A stretch of 13,299 nt of DNA. Source: Elusimicrobiota bacterium. GTDB lineage: Bacteria; Elusimicrobiota; Elusimicrobia; Elusimicrobiales; UBA9959. A program made the translations under genes and the position numbers. The stretch's first letter is position 1. Each line of letters opens with the position of its first letter. The notes beneath the pieces are model-generated. The model was not told the DNA's origin. It saw only the letters and a list, made by a program, of their open reading frames with translations, and made no database searches. The DNA lies in NCBI GenBank assembly GCA_037137395.1, contig JBAXKK010000072.1:1-13299 (forward strand), in the 5' to 3' direction. Shown here one piece after another: positions 78-13,283 of this stretch.

Positions 78-166
78 AGGATTAAGCGGTAAGTTATAAG
101 GATTAAGCTAGACCTTAATCCCTGCTCCCTTTAATCCTTAATCCTTAATTCTTAATACTTACTTCT
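78..166. repeat. Heptamer inverted-repeat element 1 (GGATTAA/TTAATCC family), fusA-tuf spacer
   Basis: Left arm ggattaa gcggtaa gttataa ggattaa g (79-107). Right arm ctttaat ccttaat ccttaat tcttaat acttact (129-163). An extra ccttaat lies at 113-119. Confidence 0.9.
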
Positions 167-173
167 TTGCTCA

Positions 174-2270
174 CTAAACGGCTTCGGCCGCGGCCTGGGT
201 CCGTTTTTCAATAACGCCCTTCGCGACATTCGCCGGCACTTCTTCGTAGTGACTGGGCTCCATGCTGAAAGAAGCGCGGCCCTGCGATATAGATCTTACC
301 ACCGTGGCGTATCCGAACATTTCTGACAGCGGCACGGTGCCGCGCACAAAACGCGCGTTGCCCCTGTTGCCCATTTCAGATATCTTGGCGCGTCTTGAGT
401 TAAGATCGCCGATGACGTCGCCCACGTTAGCTTCCGGAGTTGTGACATCAACCTTCATAATGGGTTCCATCAGATACGGACCGGCCTTACGGCAGCCGTC
501 TTTGAACGCCATAGCGCCGGCTATCTTGAAAGCGATTTCGGAAGAGTCAACATCGTGGTAGGAACCGTCAAAAAGCGTAACCTTCACGTCCACCACGGGA
601 AATCCGGCCAGCACGCCGGAGTCCATAGCCTCTCTGCAGCCCTTTTCCACGGCTGGAATGAATTCCTTGGGAACGCGGCCTTGCTTGATGCCATCCACGA
701 ACTCAAAACCTTTACCCATCGTCTGCGGCTCAACCTTAAGCCACACATGGCCGTACTGTCCGCGACCGCCGGACTGCCGGATAAATTTACCTTCTATATC
801 GACAGCCCTTTTGATGGACTCGCGGAAAGCAACCTGCGGGCGACCCACATTGGCCTGCACATTGAATTCGCGTTTAAGACGATCCACGATGATATCCAGA
901 TGAAGTTCGCCCATACCGGAGATGATGGTCTGGGAGGTCTCCTCGTCAGTCTTGATCCTAAAAGTCTGGTCTTCCTCGGCAAGGCGGCCCATCGCTATAC
1001 CCATCTTCTGCTCGTCCTCTTTGGACTTGGGCTCGATGGAGATTGAGATGACCGGCTCGGGGAAATTCATACCCTCAAGCATTATTGGGCGCTCGGGATC
1101 ACAAATGGTCTCGCCCACAGTTGCGCTCTTGATGGCCACGGTGGCGGCGATGTCGCCTGCACTGATCTCTTTAATCTCTTCGCGCTTGTTGGCGTGCATC
1201 CGCAGGATACGGCCTATGCGCTCCTGTGTATTCTTGCGTGAGAAGTGCACGGTATCGCCCGGTTTAAGGGTGCCTGAATACACGCGGAAGAATGTCAGCT
1301 TGCCCACGAAAGGGTCAGGCTGGATCTTAAACAGCAGCGCGCAGAAAGGATCTTTCGGGTCGGCTTTGCGCACGACCTCTTCGCCGGTGTGGGGATCGGT
1401 GGCGGTCAGGGGCGGGACATCCAGCGGGGACGGCAGGTAGTCAATAATAGCGTCCAGCATCGGCTGCACGCCCTTGTTTTTATAGGAGGAACCGCACAGC
1501 ACAGGGAAGAACTTTGTGGTGAGCGTGCCGCGGCGGATGGCGGCCTTCAGTTCCGCCTCGGTAAAGTTGGTGTCGCCGGCCAGGTACTTCTCCATGATAT
1601 GCTCGTCAAAATCGGCCAGTTTTTCCACAAGCAGGTCACGATACTTCTTTGAAATCTCCACCATATCGGCGGGGATCTCGACCTCGTCGAAATGAGCGCC
1701 CAGGTCGTCGCCGACCCAAATCAGCGCCTTCATCTTCACAAGGTCAACAAGGCCCTTGAAAGTTTCGGTCACGCCTATCGGAATCTGTATAGGCGAGGCG
1801 TTAGCGCCCAATTTCTCTATTATGGAATGAACGCACATAAAGTAGTCAGCGCCTATGCGATCCATCTTGTTAATGTAGGCCACGCGGGGCACATGGTAGC
1901 GGTCGGCCTGGCGCCACACTGTCTCAGACTGCGGCTCCACGCCCTGAACTCCGTCGAAAACTGTTACGGCGCCGTCCAGAACGCGCAGGGAACGCTCAAC
2001 CTCGGCGGTGAAATCAACGTGTCCGGGGGTGTCGATAATATTGACGATATGCTCGCGCCAGGTGGTGCTGATGGCAGCCGCGGTGATGGTTATACCGCGC
2101 TCGCGCTCCTGCGGCATCCAGTCCGTGGTAGTATTGCCGTCGTGCACCTCTCCGATCTTATGTGACTTTCCGGTGTAATAAAGTATGCGCTCGGTGGTCG
2201 TGGTTTTGCCGGCGTCAATGTGAGCGATAATGCCGGTGTTGCGTACCTTAGTTAAATCAAAGTCTGCCAT
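174..2270 (-). CDS. fusA: Elongation factor G (698 aa from the probable start MADFDL)
   Basis: Motifs [44 protein letters not shown] and SYHDVDSS. Start placed at ATG 2270 (AGGA at 2279-2282) rather than 2297, which lies inside a repeat arm. Confidence 0.98.
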
Positions 2271-2282
2271 AGTGTTTTTCCT

Positions 2283-2373
2283 AGATTCCGGATTCAAGAT
2301 TTAAGATGGAAGATTAGAGGTGTTTCCTTAATTCCAGTATCCCCAAATCTTGAATCTTGAATCTTAAATCTTA
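2283..2373. repeat. Heptamer inverted-repeat element 2 (GATTCAA/TTGAATC family), rpsG-fusA spacer
   Basis: Left arm gattccg gattcaa gatttaa gatggaa gattaga (2284-2318). Right arm aatcttg aatcttg aatctta aatctta (2346-2373). Confidence 0.9.
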
Positions 2374-2387
2374 AATTTTCTCCCTTG

Positions 2388-2867
2388 TTACCAGCGGTAA
2401 TGGGCGAAAGCGCGGTTGGCTTCGGCCATCCTGTGGGCGTCCTCTCTTTTCTTGAAAGCGGTGCCCTCTTTCTTGAAAGCCAGGAGAAGTTCTTCGGCCA
2501 GGTGCACATGCATAGGCGCGCCCTTGCGGTCGCGCGCGGCATTGAGTATCCAGCGCATCGCCAGCGAAGAGCCGCGGCTGGGCTTCACTTCTATCGGCAC
2601 CTGGTAGTTGGCGCCGCCGACGCGGCGGGCCTTCACTTCCACCATGGGGCGGACGTTCTCAATAGCCTTGGTAAGCACCACAAGCGCGTCTTCCTTGGTT
2701 TTTTCCTTTAAGATATCCATCGCTCCGTAGAGGATGCTTTCAGCGGCAAGCTTCTTGCCCTGGAAATTTATTTTATTCACGAACCTGGAAACCAGCACGG
2801 AATTATATCTGAAATCCGGCGGCGGGAGTTCCCTTCTGTCGCGAGGTCTTAAACCTTTTCTTGGCAT
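2388..2867 (-). CDS. rpsG: 30S ribosomal protein S7 (uS7)
   Basis: MPRKG start, [15 protein letters not shown], and C-terminal [19 protein letters not shown] at 2876-2879. Confidence 0.98.
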
Positions 2868-2904
2868 ACATTTATCTCCAATTGACTAATTTAAATATTT
2901 CGTT

Positions 2905-2978
2905 CAGTGGCTAGTGATTAGTGGGTAGTGGTTAAAATATAAGGAACTCCTTCACTAACCACTATTCACTCACCACTG
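2905..2978. repeat. Heptamer inverted-repeat element 3 (TAGTGGT/ACCACTA family), rpsL-rpsG spacer
   Basis: Left arm cagtggc tagtgat tagtggg tagtggt (2905-2932). Right arm ttcacta accacta ttcactc accactg (2951-2978). Confidence 0.9.
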
Positions 2979-2984
2979 CTGTTG

Positions 2985-3380
2985 TTACTTCTTCGCTTCC
3001 GTCTTTCCTGCCTTTGGGCGCTTGGCGCCGTAAAGCGACCGGCCCTGCCTGCGGCCTTCAACTCCGGACGCGTCCAGCGCGCCCCTGATAATATGGTACC
3101 TGCAGCCGGGAAGGTCTTTTACTTTCCCGCCCCTGACCAGAACAATGGAGTGTTCCTGGAGGTTGTGACCTACTCCGGGGATGTAGGCGGTGACTTCCTG
3201 CTTGGAGGTCAACTTGACCCTGGCTACTTTCCTGAGGGCGGAGTTGGGTTTCTTGGGGGTCGTGGTATAGACCCTGGTGCAAACGCCCCTTCTCTGCGGG
3301 CAAGACATCAACGCGGGCGCCTTGCTGAACTTCCTTAAAGATTCTCTTCCGTGCCGTATGAGCTGATTAATTGTTGACAT
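2985..3380 (-). CDS. rpsL: 30S ribosomal protein S12 (uS12), 131 aa
   Basis: MSTINQLIR start, [33 protein letters not shown] and KDLPG motifs. Start placed at ATG 3380 because it matches the family N-terminus (M-x-T-I-N-Q-L). Confidence 0.98.
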
Positions 3381-3389
3381 AATTTCCAA

Positions 3390-3474
3390 AGGGTGTAGGT
3401 TATAAGATGGAGGGCAGAGTAATAAGCAATAACTTTCTTAAACCCTGATCCCTGAACCCTAAACCCTGAACCCT
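3390..3474. repeat. Heptamer inverted-repeat element 4 (AGGGTTY/RAACCCT family), rpoC-rpsL spacer
   Basis: Right arm aaaccct gatccct gaaccct aaaccct gaaccct (3440-3474). Degenerate left arm agggtgt aggttat aagatgg agggcag (3390-3417). Confidence 0.85.
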
Positions 3475-3478
3475 ATTT

Positions 3479-7672
<4,194 letters not shown>

Positions 7673-7706
7673 GGTTGTTTTCTCCATTCAACTGTTGCGT
7701 AAGGGC

Positions 7707-7792
7707 AGATTCAAGATTCCGGATTCAAGATTTAAGATTAAGAAGGCAACTTCTGCCAATCTTGAATCTTAAATCTTGAATCTTTAATTCTA
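7707..7792. repeat. Heptamer inverted-repeat element 5 (GATTCAA/TTGAATC family), rpoB-rpoC spacer
   Basis: Left arm gattcaa gattccg gattcaa gatttaa gattaag (7708-7742). Central mini-hairpin ggca-acttc-tgcc (7745-7757). Right arm aatcttg aatctta aatcttg aatcttt aattcta (7758-7792). Confidence 0.92.
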
Positions 7793-7796
7793 ACGC

Positions 7797-10700
7797 CTAG
7801 TTCACAGCCTTGGCCGCCGCTTTCTTCTTGGCCTTTTCCTTCACGCCTTCAGCGCGGGCGGTTTCCTCTTCGGCCTTGATCAGGTCGACATCGAGGGCAA
7901 GGGCCTGCAGTTCCTTAACAAGCACCTTGAAGGATTCAGGCACGCCGGGCTGCGGCGGGAAATCACCTTTGATGATAGCTTCATACATCTTGGTCCTGCC
8001 GGAGAAGTCATCTGACTTGACGGTAAGCATCTCCTGCAGGGCGTAAGCGGCGCCGTAGCCTTCCAGTGCCCAGACTTCCATTTCGCCGAAGCGCTGGCCG
8101 CCGAAAAGGGCCTTGCCGCCCAACGGCTGCCTGGTGATGAGGCTGTACGGGCCCGTGGAGCGGGCGTGCACTTTATCTTCCACCAGGTGGATGAGCTTCA
8201 GAATGTACATGTAGCCTATCGTCACTTTTTCGTGGAACTGTTCGCCGGTCCTGCCGTCGTACAGCGTGATGCGGCAATAATCGTCGGGGAGATATTCCTC
8301 CGCCACGCCCTGCCGCTTCAAATGATCCTTGGCCAGCTGCACCATCTGGATGACGCCGGGTTTTTCCGCGTTCGGATGCGCGGAAAGGTCGTTTACGATC
8401 TCAGAAACCGTGATATCGGAGCGTTTTTTCTTGCGCTTGTCTTCCCAGTATTTCCAATAGCCGGGGTTATCCTCGGCCGCGCCGTCAAAGACCGGACAGA
8501 TCATCTGTGTGTTCAACTGTTTGCCGGCCCAGCCCAGCATGGTCTCAAGGATCTGGCCGATGTTCATACGGGACGGGACGCCCAGCGGCGAAAGCACCAT
8601 ATCCACCGGCGTGCCGTCGGGCAGATACGGCATATCTTCTTTCGGCAGAATACGGGCAACCACGCCTTTATTACCATGGCGGCCCGAGAGCTTATCTCCC
8701 ACGCGCAGCCGGCGCTTAAGGGCTATATACACCTTAACCACTTTATTGACGGTGACGGGCAGTTCGCCGGTGGCTTTCAGCAGCTCTTTTTCCCTGGCGT
8801 ACTTGTCCTTGATCTTTTTTTCCATCAGCTTATAAAACTCTTCAATGTCGGAGCCTTTTTTCTCGTCCTTCATGGCTTCCTTGCGGAAGTTTTTAAGGGC
8901 CTCGAGATTCTCCTTCATCTCTTCGTTGATCTCGTCCATGCGCCGCTTTTCTTCGGGCTTGGAGAGCTTCTCGCGGCGAACGAATACGCGGGTGCCTATA
9001 ATTTTGCCGTTTACGCCGGGCGGCACGCGCAGCGATGTGTCGGTAACATCTTCCGCTTTTTTGCCGAAGATGACCTTAAGCAGCCTTTCCTCGGGGGAAA
9101 GCTGCTGCTCGCCCTTAGGGGAAACCTTACACACCATTATGTCGCCGGGGCGGACCATGGTTGACGGCACTACAACGCCTTCGGAATCTATGTGCTCGAG
9201 GGCGTCGGAACCGACATTCGGAATATCGCGGGTGATCTCTTCCGGTCCAAGCTTCGTATCGCGGGCTTCCACTTCAAACTCTTCGATGAAGATGGAGGTT
9301 AGCGCGTCTTCTTCAACGAGCTTTTCGGAGACAAGGATGGCGTCTTCGTAGTTAAAGCCTTCCCAGCTCATGAACGCGACCAGCAGATTTTTGCCAAGGG
9401 CCAGCTGTCCGTCGCCGGTGGCGGGGCCGTCGGCTATAACATCGCCCTTCTTAACATAATCGCCGCTTCTGACGGTAGGCTTCTGATTTACGCAGGTATC
9501 CTGGTTGGACCTTCGGTATTTAATAAGGTGATAAAGATCGGGATCCTTGGAATTATCCGACTTTATTGAGATCATCTCTCCGGAGGAATAGATGACGCGG
9601 CCGCTTGTGCGCGCTGTAACGCAGGCGCGCGAATCTCTGGCGATGGCCGACTCCATTCCGGTCCCTACCAGCGGAGGTTCGGTCACCAGCAGAGGCACGG
9701 CCTGGCGCATCATGTTGGAACCCATCAGCGCGCGGTTGGCGTCGTCGTGTTCAAGGAACGGCACGCAGGCTGCCGAGATGGAAACCACCTGCATCGGGGA
9801 CACATCCATGTAGTTGACATCGCTGGAATCCACGAACACATACTCGTCCTTGGCACGGCCGTACACCCGGTCGGAGGAGAGACGTCCGCTGTCTATAGGA
9901 GTGTTGGCCTGGCCGACGAAAATGTCGTCTTCAAGGAAAGCGGTCAGGTATTCAACCTCATCCGTCATTTTCTTTGATGAGACCTTCCGGTAGGGCGTTT
10001 CGATAAGGCCGTACTGGTTAACCTTGGCGTACGCGGCCAGAGAAACGATAAGGCCGATGTTCGGGCCTTCGGGTGTTTCGATGGGACAGACGCGGCCGTA
10101 ATGGGTATAGTGCACATCGCGGACCTCGAAGCCCGCGCGCTTTCTGTTAAGACCACCGGGCCCGAGGGCCGAGAGGCGGCGCTTGTGCGTCAGTTCGGCC
10201 AGCGGGTTGATCTGGTCCATGAACTGCGAGAGCTGGGAAGTGCCGAAGAACTTCCTCATGATAGCCACCACGGGCGCGGCGTTAACCAGCGTGCGCGGGG
10301 TGATGGTTTTGTCTTCCTTATTCATGCGGTCGCGCACGTTGCGCGAGATCTGGACCAGCGCCACGCGGATCTGGTTCTCAAGAAGTTCGCCGATGGAACG
10401 CACGCGCCTGTTGCCCAGGTGGTCGATGTCGTCCACTTTATACTCGAATTTCTGCCCTTTATAATCGAAGCCGGGCGCGCCTGAATTCATCGCCATTAGA
10501 TACTTCACGGTGACGATAATATCTTCTATGCAGATATTGCGTTTGTTCTCGGCGGGCACTTTGAATTTTTTATCCTGCCTGGCGAGCTCTTCATACACGG
10601 GGGTGAGCTTTCTGGCGGCCTTGTAACGCCCGACTATGGAAAAGTCGTAGCGGCGCAGGCTCTTGAAAAGTATGTTGTCAAGATATTCGTCGGCCTGTTC

Positions 10701-11678
10701 CTTGACGATAAAGTCCTGACCCCGCATCTTCTTATAGATTTCGTAGCGGGCCTCGGCGGCGCTCTTGGGCTGGTTCTTACCTTCCAGCGCCAGAATGATA
10801 CCGGGGTTGTCCTCTTTGGGACTGCCTTTTATCAGGCGGACCTTGGTGATCTTGCGCTCAAGCATGATCTTCACGGTCTTTTCATCAAGGGGCTGGGCAG
10901 CTTTCTCTTCCAGATTCCAGACGACCTCTCCGGTCTTGGTGTCCACGATGTCTTCTATGGCGTAGTGGCCGACGATATTGGCGGCGTTATCCGCGGTGAC
11001 GGCGGCGTCAACGGAGGGATAAAAGATCTGGAGAACTTCGGCGTTGGTCTCGATGCCGGCAGCCTTAAGGAACGTGGTCGCGAGAATCTTTTTCTTGCGG
11101 TCAAGCCTCACCCACAGGACATTGTCCAGGTCAAATTCAAATTCCACCCAGGCGCCGCGATACGGAATAATGCGGGCGTAATAAAGCGATTTACCCAGTA
11201 CGGACTGCTTTTTCTCGTCATCATCTTCAAAGATTATGCCGGGAGAACGATGCAGCTGGCTGACGACAATGCGCTCGGCGCCGTTGAAAATAAAGGAACC
11301 GGTATCGGTCATCAGGGGGAGGTCGCAGAGCGTGACATCCTGGTCGATGATGTGCTTAAGTTTGCCGCTCTCCTGTTTGGTGCTGAGCGAAAGGAAGGCT
11401 TTTAGCGGAGCCGCGTAGGTGCCGCCGCGAACCAGCGCCTCTTCAGGGCTGTGATATTTGGGAGTGCCGAGTTCAAATTTAAGATAGTCCAGAACCATGG
11501 AACCGTCGGCCGACTCTATCGGAAACACGTCGACAAATGAGGCCTGGAGGCCCTGTATTTTTCGCTGTTCCGGCTCCTTGTCAAGCTGAAGGAACCATTC
11601 GTAAGACTGCTTTTGCATGTCCAGCAGGTCGGGTACTTTGAGGATTTGGGATATACGGGAGAAGTTAAGTTGTTTCAT
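7797..11678 (-). CDS. rpoB: DNA-directed RNA polymerase subunit beta (1293 aa)
   Basis: Motifs SQLSQFMDQ...THKRRLSALGPGG, CPIETPEGPNIGL, GDKLSGRHGNKG and GGQRFGEMEVWALE. Start placed at ATG 11678 (MKQLNFSRI) with SD GAGGTGA at 11681-11687; the track's extension to 11756 runs through a structured leader. Confidence 0.98.
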   Translation of the reverse strand: MKQLNFSRISQILKVPDLLDMQKQSYEWFLQLDKEPEQRKIQGLQASFVDVFPIESADGSMVLDYLKFELGTPKYHSPEEALVRGGTYAAPLKAFLSLSTKQESGKLKHIIDQDVTLCDLPLMTDTGSFIFNGAERIVVSQLHRSPGIIFEDDDEKKQSVLGKSLYYARIIPYRGAWVEFEFDLDNVLWVRLDRKKKILATTFLKAAGIETNAEVLQIFYPSVDAAVTADNAANIVGHYAIEDIVDTKTGEVVWNLEEKAAQPLDEKTVKIMLERKITKVRLIKGSPKEDNPGIILALEGKNQPKSAAEARYEIYKKMRGQDFIVKEQADEYLDNILFKSLRRYDFSIVGRYKAARKLTPVYEELARQDKKFKVPAENKRNICIEDIIVTVKYLMAMNSGAPGFDYKGQKFEYKVDDIDHLGNRRVRSIGELLENQIRVALVQISRNVRDRMNKEDKTITPRTLVNAAPVVAIMRKFFGTSQLSQFMDQINPLAELTHKRRLSALGPGGLNRKRAGFEVRDVHYTHYGRVCPIETPEGPNIGLIVSLAAYAKVNQYGLIETPYRKVSSKKMTDEVEYLTAFLEDDIFVGQANTPIDSGRLSSDRVYGRAKDEYVFVDSSDVNYMDVSPMQVVSISAACVPFLEHDDANRALMGSNMMRQAVPLLVTEPPLVGTGMESAIARDSRACVTARTSGRVIYSSGEMISIKSDNSKDPDLYHLIKYRRSNQDTCVNQKPTVRSGDYVKKGDVIADGPATGDGQLALGKNLLVAFMSWEGFNYEDAILVSEKLVEEDALTSIFIEEFEVEARDTKLGPEEITRDIPNVGSDALEHIDSEGVVVPSTMVRPGDIMVCKVSPKGEQQLSPEERLLKVIFGKKAEDVTDTSLRVPPGVNGKIIGTRVFVRREKLSKPEEKRRMDEINEEMKENLEALKNFRKEAMKDEKKGSDIEEFYKLMEKKIKDKYAREKELLKATGELPVTVNKVVKVYIALKRRLRVGDKLSGRHGNKGVVARILPKEDMPYLPDGTPVDMVLSPLGVPSRMNIGQILETMLGWAGKQLNTQMICPVFDGAAEDNPGYWKYWEDKRKKKRSDITVSEIVNDLSAHPNAEKPGVIQMVQLAKDHLKRQGVAEEYLPDDYCRITLYDGRTGEQFHEKVTIGYMYILKLIHLVEDKVHARSTGPYSLITRQPLGGKALFGGQRFGEMEVWALEGYGAAYALQEMLTVKSDDFSGRTKMYEAIIKGDFPPQPGVPESFKVLVKELQALALDVDLIKAEEETARAEGVKEKAKKKAAAKAVN

Positions 11679-11701
11679 CGTCACCTCGTTAGTGGTTGGA
11701 C

Positions 11702-11832
11702 TACACTTAAGTCTTGGCCGCAGGAAATACAGATAGCAGATAATCCCGACGGACATTGCGTCCGCCGGGATAAATCTACGGCCTTCCTACATTACTGTCG
11801 TAATTAAGACTATTATTTCAGTTTCCGGTGTA
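11702..11832 (-). promoter_or_regulatory. Candidate structured rpoB 5' leader (nested stems)
   Basis: mRNA-sense pairings: UACAC/GUGUA, AGUCUU/AAGACU, side hairpin AUUAC-GACA-GUAAU, GUAGGAA/UUCCUGC, GUAGAU/AUCUGC, and a 12-bp AUCCCGGCGGAC/GUCCGUCGGGAU stem with a GCAAU loop. Confidence 0.6.
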
Positions 11833-11839
11833 TACATCG

Positions 11840-11942
11840 AGAAGCACAGCCATCCGGCAACTCAGCCATTCAGCAGTCAACAATCTTAAGACTAGACTGC
11901 CTTACCTCTAAACGGCTTTGCATCCGGACAGGCTTTGCCTCT
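11840..11942 (-). other. Long irregular RNA hairpin just downstream of rplL
   Basis: Nested mRNA-sense pairings: AGAGGCA/UGCUUCU, AGCC/GGCU, UCCGG/CCGGA, AGCCGUUU/GAAUGGCU, GCAGUC/GACUGC, and UAGUC-UUAA-GAUUG. Confidence 0.6.
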
Positions 11943-11952
11943 TATATTAAAG

Positions 11953-12351
11953 TTACTTCAGTACGACGACGCCGCCGGCTTCGGTAAGCCTCTTGTTCAT
12001 GTCGTCAGCGGTTTTCTTGTCGACGTTCTCTTTTACAATCTTAGGGGCGCCTTCAACCAGATCCTTGGATTCTTTTAAACCCAGGCCGGTGAGTTCCCTG
12101 ACAACTTTGATGACGCCGATCTTTTTGGCCGGGTCGGATATGGCTTTGAGTTCGACGGTGAATTCGGTCTTTTCCTCGGTGGCGACGGCGGCGGCGCCGG
12201 CGGCGGGGGCGGCGGCCATGGCCATGCCCATAGCGGGGGCGGCCTTCACGCCGAATTTCTCCTCGATACCCTTAACGAGGTCGGAAAGTTCCATCACCGT
12301 GAGGGTGGAAATGGCTTCAACTATCTGGTCTTTATTGAGTTTTTCTGACAT
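11953..12351 (-). CDS. rplL: 50S ribosomal protein L7/L12 (bL12)
   Basis: [19 protein letters not shown], an Ala-rich hinge, EEKTEF, and [33 protein letters not shown] at 12360-12365. Confidence 0.98.
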
Positions 12352-12374
12352 GTTATTGTCTCCTTGTAGTCATG

Positions 12375-12443
12375 AATAGCCCGCTTAACAGCAGTCACTC
12401 GCCGTTTGTTAACCGGTTTATCCCCTAAACTTCGGGGGCTATC
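12375..12443 (-). promoter_or_regulatory. Candidate three-way-junction RNA upstream of the rplL ribosome-binding site
   Basis: P1 GAUAGCCC/GGGCUAUU; P2 CCG-(AA)-GUUUA/UAAAC-CGG; P3 UUAACA/UGUUAA with an inner CGG/CUG stem. Confidence 0.5.
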
Positions 12444-12468
12444 AGGATTTTAGTTAATTACTGCAAAA

Positions 12469-13008
12469 TTATTTTGCTTCGGAAGATTTCTTCTCTCGCA
12501 CGGCCTCAACGGCGTAAGCGAGGTTAGTGGTCGGAGCTTCAAGAACCCACCTGATCTGAGCCAGGTTAGAGTAAAGAACCCCGGCCAGCTGCGTAAGCAG
12601 TTCGGCCTTGGTTCCGATCTTGGAAAGTTTTTCCAGATCCGCGGGCGTGAGCCAGCGGCTTGAAGTAAAACCACCCTTTATCTTTAAAGCGGGATTTTCC
12701 TTGGCAAAAGCCAGGAGGGCCTTGGCGGCCTTGGCGATGTCGTCGGCGCTGTCGATGGTGATAACGCCGGTAGGACCCTTAGCCACGCGGGCGTCTTCGG
12801 ACTTAAGCGCGGCGTTAGCCAGAGCGTGCGATACAACGGTGTTACGCATTACTTTAAATTTGGATTTAGCGGGGCGCAGATTCTCTTTAAGGGTATTGAT
12901 ATCCTTAAATTTGAGGCCCTGGAACGAGGCAAAAAACACATCTTTCGCCTTAAACTCGTCGCCGAGCTTCTTAGCGAGTTCGATTTTATCGTTTTTGCTG
13001 AGTTTCAT
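12469..13008 (-). CDS. rplJ: 50S ribosomal protein L10 (uL10)
   Basis: 179 aa directly upstream of rplL. Contains FQGL...FKVMRNT, GPTGV and LKIKGG segments matching L10 motifs, plus a C-terminal amphipathic helix region. Divergent but positionally unambiguous. Confidence 0.93.
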   Translation of the reverse strand: MKLSKNDKIELAKKLGDEFKAKDVFFASFQGLKFKDINTLKENLRPAKSKFKVMRNTVVSHALANAALKSEDARVAKGPTGVITIDSADDIAKAAKALLAFAKENPALKIKGGFTSSRWLTPADLEKLSKIGTKAELLTQLAGVLYSNLAQIRWVLEAPTTNLAYAVEAVREKKSSEAK

Positions 13009-13013
13009 AAAAA

Positions 13014-13113
13014 GATAAGTAGTAAGTTGTAAGGATTAAGTGGTAAGTTGTCAGCGATAATAAGAAGTAAGAAATTTTAAAAACTTAATCCTTAACACTT
13101 AATCCTTAATTCT
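13014..13113. repeat. Heptamer inverted-repeat element 6 (GGATTAA/TTAATCC family), 5S rRNA-rplJ spacer
   Basis: Left arm gataagt agtaagt tgtaagg attaagt ggtaagt tgtcagc (13014-13055). Right arm acttaat ccttaac acttaat ccttaat (13083-13110). Confidence 0.9.
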
Positions 13114-13163
13114 GGTCCTTTGAAAATTATTGCGCGATTCTAAAAACCTCATGTGATTTGTAA

Positions 13164-13283
13164 GACCGGCAGCGACCTACTCTGCCAACACCGGATTGGG
13201 TGTTAGTACCATCGGCCCTGGAGCCCTTAACTGCCGTGTTCGGAATGGGAACGGGTGTTACCTCTCCGGAATAACCACCGGTC
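13164..13283 (-). rRNA. rrf: 5S ribosomal RNA
   Basis: Reverse complement contains the 5S hallmarks CACCCGUUCCCAUUCCGAACACGGCAGUUAAG, GCCGAUGGUAC and AGAGUAGG. Terminal helix GACCGGUGG/CUGCCGGUC; about 120 nt. Ends uncertain by a few nt. Confidence 0.97.

Follow-up and report, generated by a model that had tools for sequence, protein, structure and literature searches.

Gene-less inverted heptamer hairpins at the gene junctions of an Elusimicrobiota str/rpo operon and their probable kinship with cassettes that enclose IVP four-helix-bundle genes

What are the hairpins that occupy most of the gaps between the genes of an Elusimicrobiota str/rpo operon? The stretch analysed here (the window, 13,299 nucleotides) is contig C72 of a 2.7-Mb, 174-contig assembly (genome label G000), and hairpins whose two arms are inverted arrays of 7-base words occupy six of its eight intergenic gaps, all but those between rpoB and rplL and between rplL and rplJ. 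The reading that best accounts for them, to which a probability of roughly 0.5 is assigned, is that they are gene-less, REPIN-like members of a dispersed inverted-repeat family whose gene-carrying form encloses a gene of the IVP four-helix-bundle family. Established are their anatomy (a G-rich arm first, about four 7- or 8-base words per arm, and a core that holds a G), the enclosure of IVP genes by such arms and the co-occurrence of the two, a fast turnover at the junctions, and the imperfection of the stems. The features of the window are listed below, one per line.

78..166, hairpin A (TAAG family), AG arm 78-112 and CT arm 132-166, between the fusA stop (174) and the tuf start (55)
2283..2378, hairpin B (AGATT family), AG arm 2283-2324 and CT arm 2344-2378, between rpsG and fusA
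2906..2977, hairpin C (AGTG family), AG arm 2906-2933 and CT arm 2950-2977, between rpsL and rpsG
2941..2952, loop palindrome AAGGARYTCCTT, an exact copy, in hairpin C
3390..3474, hairpin D (AGGG family), degenerate AG arm 3390-3424 and CT arm 3440-3474, between rpoC and rpsL
7707..7783, hairpin E (AGATT family), AG arm 7707-7741 and CT arm 7756-7783, between rpoB and rpoC
13018..13113, hairpin F (TAAG family), AG arm 13018-13059 and CT arm 13079-13113, between the 5S rRNA gene and rplJ
174..13008, reverse strand, rplJ-rplL-rpoB-rpoC-rpsL-rpsG-fusA, then tuf, cut at the window start; names recognised from translations of open reading frames, not by profile search
13164..13282, reverse strand, 5S rRNA gene (RF00001, 80.4 bits)

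A preliminary description of the window had read the arms as a lattice with AG (left arm) or CT (right arm) every 7 nt. All 55 of the starts that it listed (28 AG, 27 CT) are correct and, as it maintained, the 7-nt register is intact across the listed runs; the in-phase positions that it skipped are not AG (GG at 2290, AA at 3404, GG at 7721), which gives 55 of 58 positions within runs. Seven-point AG/CT lattices in hairpin order number five in the window, well above chance expectation, with a mean of 0.007 and a maximum of one in 300 dinucleotide shuffles. All six hairpins are gene-less and lie between protein genes or between the 5S rRNA gene and rplJ, none being inside an rRNA gene, unlike the 23S intervening sequence. 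In a scan of the window with Rfam 15, the sole pass was the 5S rRNA gene, hairpin E scoring 27.5 against the 100 needed for a microRNA model. Hairpin B carries a degenerate loop palindrome at about 2318-2330; hairpin D, of which the CT arm alone clears the profile scan, ends 9 nt ahead of the rpsL ATG (3380), and hairpin F ends 9 nt ahead of the rplJ ATG (13008) with a spacer devoid of a Shine-Dalgarno sequence.

The six hairpins belong to a genome-wide population. A sequence-free finder of inverted pairs, run at periods 5-10, returned 122 pairs of period 7 and 10 of period 8, the other four periods yielding none, and profiles trained on these pairs recovered 787 arms, 230 pairs and 11 word families, with 230 pairs in the AG-type-first polarity against 17 in the reverse. 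The arms are tandem runs of non-palindromic words, unlike the self-palindromic REP units, and near-identical copies across loci, a trait of miniature inverted-repeat transposable elements, were not seen, three-word strings recurring at most three times. As side observations, 327 arms were left unpaired, 216 of them between co-directional genes with 119 and 97 of either type on the mRNA, and longer-period inverted arrays (about 9 or more bases) lie at similar junctions, specifically the rpsL-rpsG gap of a relative (L018, genome G020) and G000:C62:1369-1610. Of two candidate causes, all-frame stop codons explain period 7 only in part (they are present in 41 of 54 arms of one family and in none of the 25 arms of an 8-base family), and adenine-specific mutagenesis of the type used by diversity-generating retroelements, considered as the origin of the word variants, is contradicted, by inspection, by fixed A and T columns.

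The preliminary description had also ventured a speculative link to the IVP four-helix-bundle family, which was borne out both by an intact gene inside the arms and by co-occurrence across genomes. The sole intact IVP gene of the genome (contig C76) is enclosed by arms of the CGTAAAG family. Its product matches PF05635 with 126 bits (the family is also TIGR02436), is homologous to the five-chain structure 2GSC (E 1e-30), with 2RLD, also of five chains, likewise related, has its two best relatives in the Elusimicrobia phylum, and resembles Avd (PF22296 at E 6e-7). We know of no catalytic activity of this bundle. The second IVP-family match in the genome, the Avd of a retroelement, lacks heptamer arms; the C76 cassette has no reverse transcriptase or template repeat beside its gene in the locus read. 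The 3' half of an IVP gene persists as a remnant on contig C8 (L005:1350-1690), after an apparent alaS end and followed by a complete 8-base hairpin and then a tRNA-like gene, and the same span has a partial match in genome G001. A profile built from 78 IVP proteins found no IVP remnants in loops, the only matches at E<1 being the C76 gene, the C8 remnant and the retroelement Avd, and the GxxExxY family had no match above cut-off in the genome. The retroelement itself (L002, G000:C52:12186-15482) looks complete, with an Lcl_C target, an Avd-like gene, a template-like repeat and a reverse transcriptase.

Phylogenetic co-occurrence, a check that the preliminary description had proposed, points the same way: AG-lattice hairpins occur in 12 of 31 genomes, all 12 among the 15 with a TIGR02436 match, and in 0 of the 16 without an IVP match, counts that are of overlapping matches and come from genomes that, being kin, are not independent. 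The IVP-positive genomes without AG-lattice hairpins are G003, which has 8-base arms, G012, which has another lattice, and G015. G012 holds 46-48 matches to the GA/TC control patterns beside 7 IVP matches, which indicates a heptamer family with a different fixed pair. Among the best 80 IVP loci from one scan of named genomes of many phyla, paired arms are present at 60, a single clear arm at 14 and no arm at 6; the paired arms have period 7 at 51 loci, period 8 at 8 and period 9 at 1. When 28 loci of this genome and its relatives were added under a looser rule, concordant arms were present at 96 of 108 loci, the upstream arm having more G than C in 93 of these 96 and an invariant G in 86. Moreover, in relatives, IVP genes are flanked by word families of which the copies in this genome enclose no gene. 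Hairpins without a gene and IVP cassettes very probably form one family. At four loci (L032, L035, L043 and L044), the IVP frame stays open across the second arm and joins a long frame downstream (open frames of 452 to about 1200 codons), the C-rich arm being translated into a Leu/Pro/Ser-rich linker.

The arms could, as the preliminary description proposed, spell a universal code in which one ring protein reads an AG every 7 nt, one unit per subunit, in the manner of TRAP, with five units matching a pentamer; TRAP and bAvd are ring-shaped nucleic-acid binders. Its statement that the other five positions vary does not hold: four or five columns are near-fixed in each window family and only two or three are free. 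The columns at or above 95% form the cores TAAG, AGTG, AGGG and GATT (the A preceding GATT reaches 79%), values that are inflated by the training of the profiles on the same genome, and an unbiased arm set agrees on the fixed columns, some at lower values. Most families fix a core of 3-5 bases, not two bases. Genome-wide, AG stands in register in 1436 of 2210 units (627 of 899 in the unbiased set, with the same family split): at 87-100% in seven families, at 74% in an eighth (AGATT), and at only 53% in CGTAAAG, 39% in RGTAACC and 28% in the largest family, N-G-C-Y-D-T-W, of which the first column is free. These last three families, which include the two largest (CGTAAAG and N-G-C-Y-D-T-W), hold over half of the units. 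In the CGTAAAG family, C precedes the fixed G in 409 of 492 units, and TCGGGAA-like arms accompany the closest IVP relatives, so that its AG probably does not stand in the same register as that of the other families.

The proposal that one ring protein reads AG does draw on real features, since AG reaches at least 87% in seven of 11 families, off-register AG is depleted in three families, AG is the only outlier among period-8 dinucleotide lattices (23 hairpins against at most 2 for any other dinucleotide), and the IVP homologues 2GSC and 2RLD are of five chains. Conversely, GC and TA lattices equal those of AG in frequency at period 7 (70 and 66 against 65), AG is invariant in only 28 of the 60 paired-arm IVP loci and 47 of the 96 concordant ones, and the number of units per arm, put at about five, has its mode at four (109 of 230 left arms and 105 of 230 right arms, against 54 and 59 with five), which leaves the match to a pentamer unsupported. 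The Xanthomonas unit GGGAATC, as given in the main text of PMC4692102, has no AG. On a quick and poorly resolved IVP tree, with 60 of 105 inner branches open, the AG label needs 27 changes; the labels do cluster (2 of 500 shuffles reach this), which shows no co-evolution because kin share labels. The preliminary description had itself named the lack of an invariant dinucleotide common to the families as telling against it, and this lack is what is found, genome-wide and across phyla. A single G column, picked as the best per family, stands at 94-100% in all 11 families (2178 of 2210 units), and this G and the G-rich-arm-first polarity are all that the families have in common. A TRAP-like reader of AG is accordingly highly unlikely and, as a universal code, is largely refuted: AG is the commonest spelling of the family core.

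The preliminary description fared better in its claim that selection acts on register, to which the word core can be added, more than on helix stability, since facing words mismatch more than swapped partners do. Watson-Crick pairing in the best register is 74.6% against 76.5±0.4% for swapped partners, below 300 of 300 controls, in 147 same-family co-directional elements. In a fixed-register test of 151 of the 174 same-family pairs (12 long-arm and 11 small-family pairs left out), mismatches per facing word pair are 2.085 against 1.963±0.036 for swapped partners (0/500), and both the outer-aligned and the inner-aligned comparisons give 0/500. The excess recurs in a second genus (G016, 50 elements in 580 kb), with 0/500 inner-aligned and 13/500 outer-aligned; the 220 kb of G002 held too few elements for this test. 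Identical adjacent words are also depleted, with 35 of 1053 against about 63 expected in arms of up to 8 units and the pool level regained at longer lags, and with 13 against 25.6 expected in G016. Simple slippage, which the preliminary description had named as the alternative, is thus not the main source of the arms, although long perfect runs exist.

These figures bear on the reading in which no protein reads the words and slippage, template switching and in-register gene conversion generate them, the IVP gene being a passenger and the fixed columns reflecting recent descent and the loss of perfect repeats. It would explain the long arms present in 12 of 174 same-family pairs, some of them perfect, a family of near-perfect, slippage-like arrays in G002, the chimeric arms and the 56 of 230 pairs of mixed family, and the presence of far more families than IVP genes; polymerase slippage is, moreover, the published suggestion for heptamers (cited in the main text of PMC4692102). 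Slippage predicts the identical neighbours that are depleted here, columns at 97-100% adjoin a free column, in a profile that two genera share, and neither the fixed polarity across phyla nor the co-occurrence with IVP is explained, all of which renders a purely neutral origin unlikely. The word patterns point to words that may be kept for recognition and in which perfect pairing would be avoided.

The placement of the elements, assessed on our own gene calls, is compatible with a role in the transcript. Of the 219 elements that could be classified, 193 are flanked by co-directional genes (background 925 of 1216, p 1e-5); the first arm begins a median of 7 nt past the stop codon, and the element ends at most 12 nt before the ATG in 53 of the 161 elements for which a start was found; a Shine-Dalgarno sequence is missing locally from 52 of these 53 (genome background, 654 of 1586). 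A Shine-Dalgarno sequence 5' of the hairpin that folding would bring to the start was considered and rejected, being present in 9 of 53 start-proximal elements and in 10 of 66 and 5 of 42 others. The hairpins could, from this placement, be host-selected RNA elements for translational coupling or mRNA processing, in which the transcript is the target of a binder or of RNase III and the periodic mismatches tune cleavage. Folding is slightly better on the sense strand (120 of 193, p 0.0014), which fits an RNA role, an RNase III gene is present, RNase III cuts the Coxiella intervening sequence at the first heptamer (PMC4990558, main text), and translational regulation has been proposed for the TAACTGA repeats (PMC4679880, main text). 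Insert tolerance predicts the same placement, there is no G-U bias (G-U and A-C oppositions on the mRNA stand at 234:222), and the behaviour of the loop palindrome and of the junctions themselves, described below, fits poorly with selection on the transcript, which makes this explanation improbable as well.

A 12-base palindrome, AAGGARYTCCTT, is found in 38 of 230 loops (2 substitutions allowed) and in five families, against 1.6 and at most 6 in shuffled loops. Its exact copies number 82 in G016, 53 in G008, 13 in this genome and 3 in G010, a genome rich in hairpins; the column profile of the largest family recurs in G016, often around a AAGGARYTCCTT core, and many of the listed G016 and G008 copies are about 70-75 bases long with the palindrome at their centre. 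It reads as a Shine-Dalgarno sequence both ways and occurs in both orientations on the mRNA (13:6 here, 10:8 in G016), which, together with the even G-U and A-C oppositions, argues for a symmetry at the level of DNA.

The junctions turn over quickly. At orthologous gaps of the str operon, relatives have the same family, another family, one arm or nothing, so that elements are not kept even within the genus, and in ten sister-family genomes the rpsG-fusA gap measures only 12-18 nt. The syntenic site in this genome could be located for 14 of 28 IVP loci of relatives, and holds the gene in 1 case, a gene-less heptamer hairpin of another family in 3, a longer-period hairpin in 1, a lone arm in 1 and no heptamer arms in 8. 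In contigs that come from two other studies and have genes about 95-97% identical to those here, other sequence stands in place of the whole of hairpins C and F. Beside hairpin F, rplJ lies directly downstream of the 5S rRNA gene on the same strand (13008-13282), and this junction is also spanned, with another spacer, in the contigs of the two other studies. In the rpsL-rpsG gap of G002 (L011), compared with 2906-2977 of the window, the word family is the same and an 11-base stretch of the loop is reversed, by either an inversion between the arms or an independent insertion.

A number of observations weigh against the REPIN-like reading. The main difficulty is that one intact IVP gene and one 3' remnant face 11 word families, which makes a current one-to-one cognate recognition impossible for most families; either a broad reader of the G lattice or the recent loss of other cassettes is needed, and the C8 remnant fits such a loss. 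In G005, a genome that is 68% complete, the heptamer hairpins belong to another family and no IVP match was found. Only 18 of 124 loops resemble another loop (at least 18 nt in common), so that whole-element copying is not obvious; direct repeats of at least 6 nt, sought as target-site duplications, flank 18 of 230 elements against 8.5 in controls; and no transposase was linked to the elements, a search of the genome for RAYTs not having been made. On the side of pairing, the offset-free swapped comparison is weak (27/500), and the mismatch excess is present in five AG-fixed families and absent from the two largest families. The better folding of the sense strand, the perfect arrays of G002 and the inflated column values, tempered by the unbiased set, belong here too.

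Set against the rest of the evidence, these points leave the REPIN-like reading as the best explanation. The family core is inferred to be read by IVP, the copies to be placed or converted as DNA, and their words to pass a survival filter that keeps the stems imperfect. An IVP oligomer would recognise the repeated family core of an arm, single-stranded or extruded, and at stop-to-start junctions copies would be inserted, exchanged or turned round at the DNA level. The two or three free columns would be filtered so that neighbouring and facing words differ, possibly because perfect direct or inverted repeats are deleted or cleaved. A wider extension, offered tentatively and doubtful as it stands, is a transposase-free mobile or diversifying system spread over many phyla: an Avd-like pentamer would read a G-anchored lattice of 7-8 bases and, with a host polymerase or reverse transcriptase, would write hairpins word by word into gene junctions from a family vocabulary, each copy being a fresh combination around a fixed frame, and IVP and the heptamer excess would be the halves of one machine.

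The AG code was overstated, and what is of value is the connection to IVP together with the selection against pairing. Many bacterial genomes have an excess of heptamer repeats for which no cause is generally accepted, and the IVP family, of which pentameric structures have been solved, has no known function; the present data tie the two together. In place of a loose AG code stand testable rules: each family core is anchored by a G, the polarity is fixed, pairing is avoided and a palindrome recurs in loops. These rules specify exactly which substrates and controls an initial assay of binding or mobility would use.

A literature search, with most subscription papers and all supplements outside its scope, found no general account of heptamer-armed IVP cassettes or of heptamer hairpins; the single such cassette in print is the intervening sequence in the 23S rRNA of Coxiella burnetii, in which, according to the main text of PMC4990558, GACAGAT heptamers lie upstream of an IVP/S23p gene and RNase III performs the excision. 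The two are alike in the IVP/S23p gene in the loop of an inverted repeat, the upstream heptamers and the variable number of units, and differ in that the Coxiella sequence is part of an rRNA, from which RNase III excises it, whereas the elements described here lie between protein genes and are mostly gene-less. Close counterparts are also the inverted pairs of GGGAATC heptamers in Xanthomonas (Rehm et al. 2015, PMC4692102), 70 of them in Xcc, which were read as G-quadruplexes. As presented in the main text, these are likewise intergenic, convergent, mostly of four units with some conserved columns, near the 5' neighbour and variable between species; they form one G-rich family, whereas 11 families share one genome here, and the main text is silent on four-helix-bundle or S23 proteins.

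The TAACTGA direct repeats of Beggiatoaceae (MacGregor 2015, PMC4679880) precede start codons, rarely with a Shine-Dalgarno sequence, in ribosomal-protein operons including fusA. They resemble the present elements as heptamers just upstream of starts and, by our comparison, in a word similar to the CT-type second arm, and differ as direct repeats of one word without paired arms, the main text making no link to four-helix bundles. REPINs and their RAYTs (Bertels and Rainey 2011, PMC3116915) offer a model for dispersal, being extragenic inverted doublets with a spacer, in many copies and with an associated gene flanked by the same repeats; their arms are short palindromic REPs and their partner is a tyrosine transposase, whereas here the arms are arrays of non-palindromic words and the partner is a four-helix bundle. 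TRAP and bAvd bind nucleic acid, whereas IVP is a putative repeat binder that resembles Avd, a likeness of PF05635 that the main text of PMC10053308 points out. In sum, inverted heptamer pairs are already in print, and the mismatch excess of facing words, the depletion of identical neighbours and the recurrent loop palindrome are new here.

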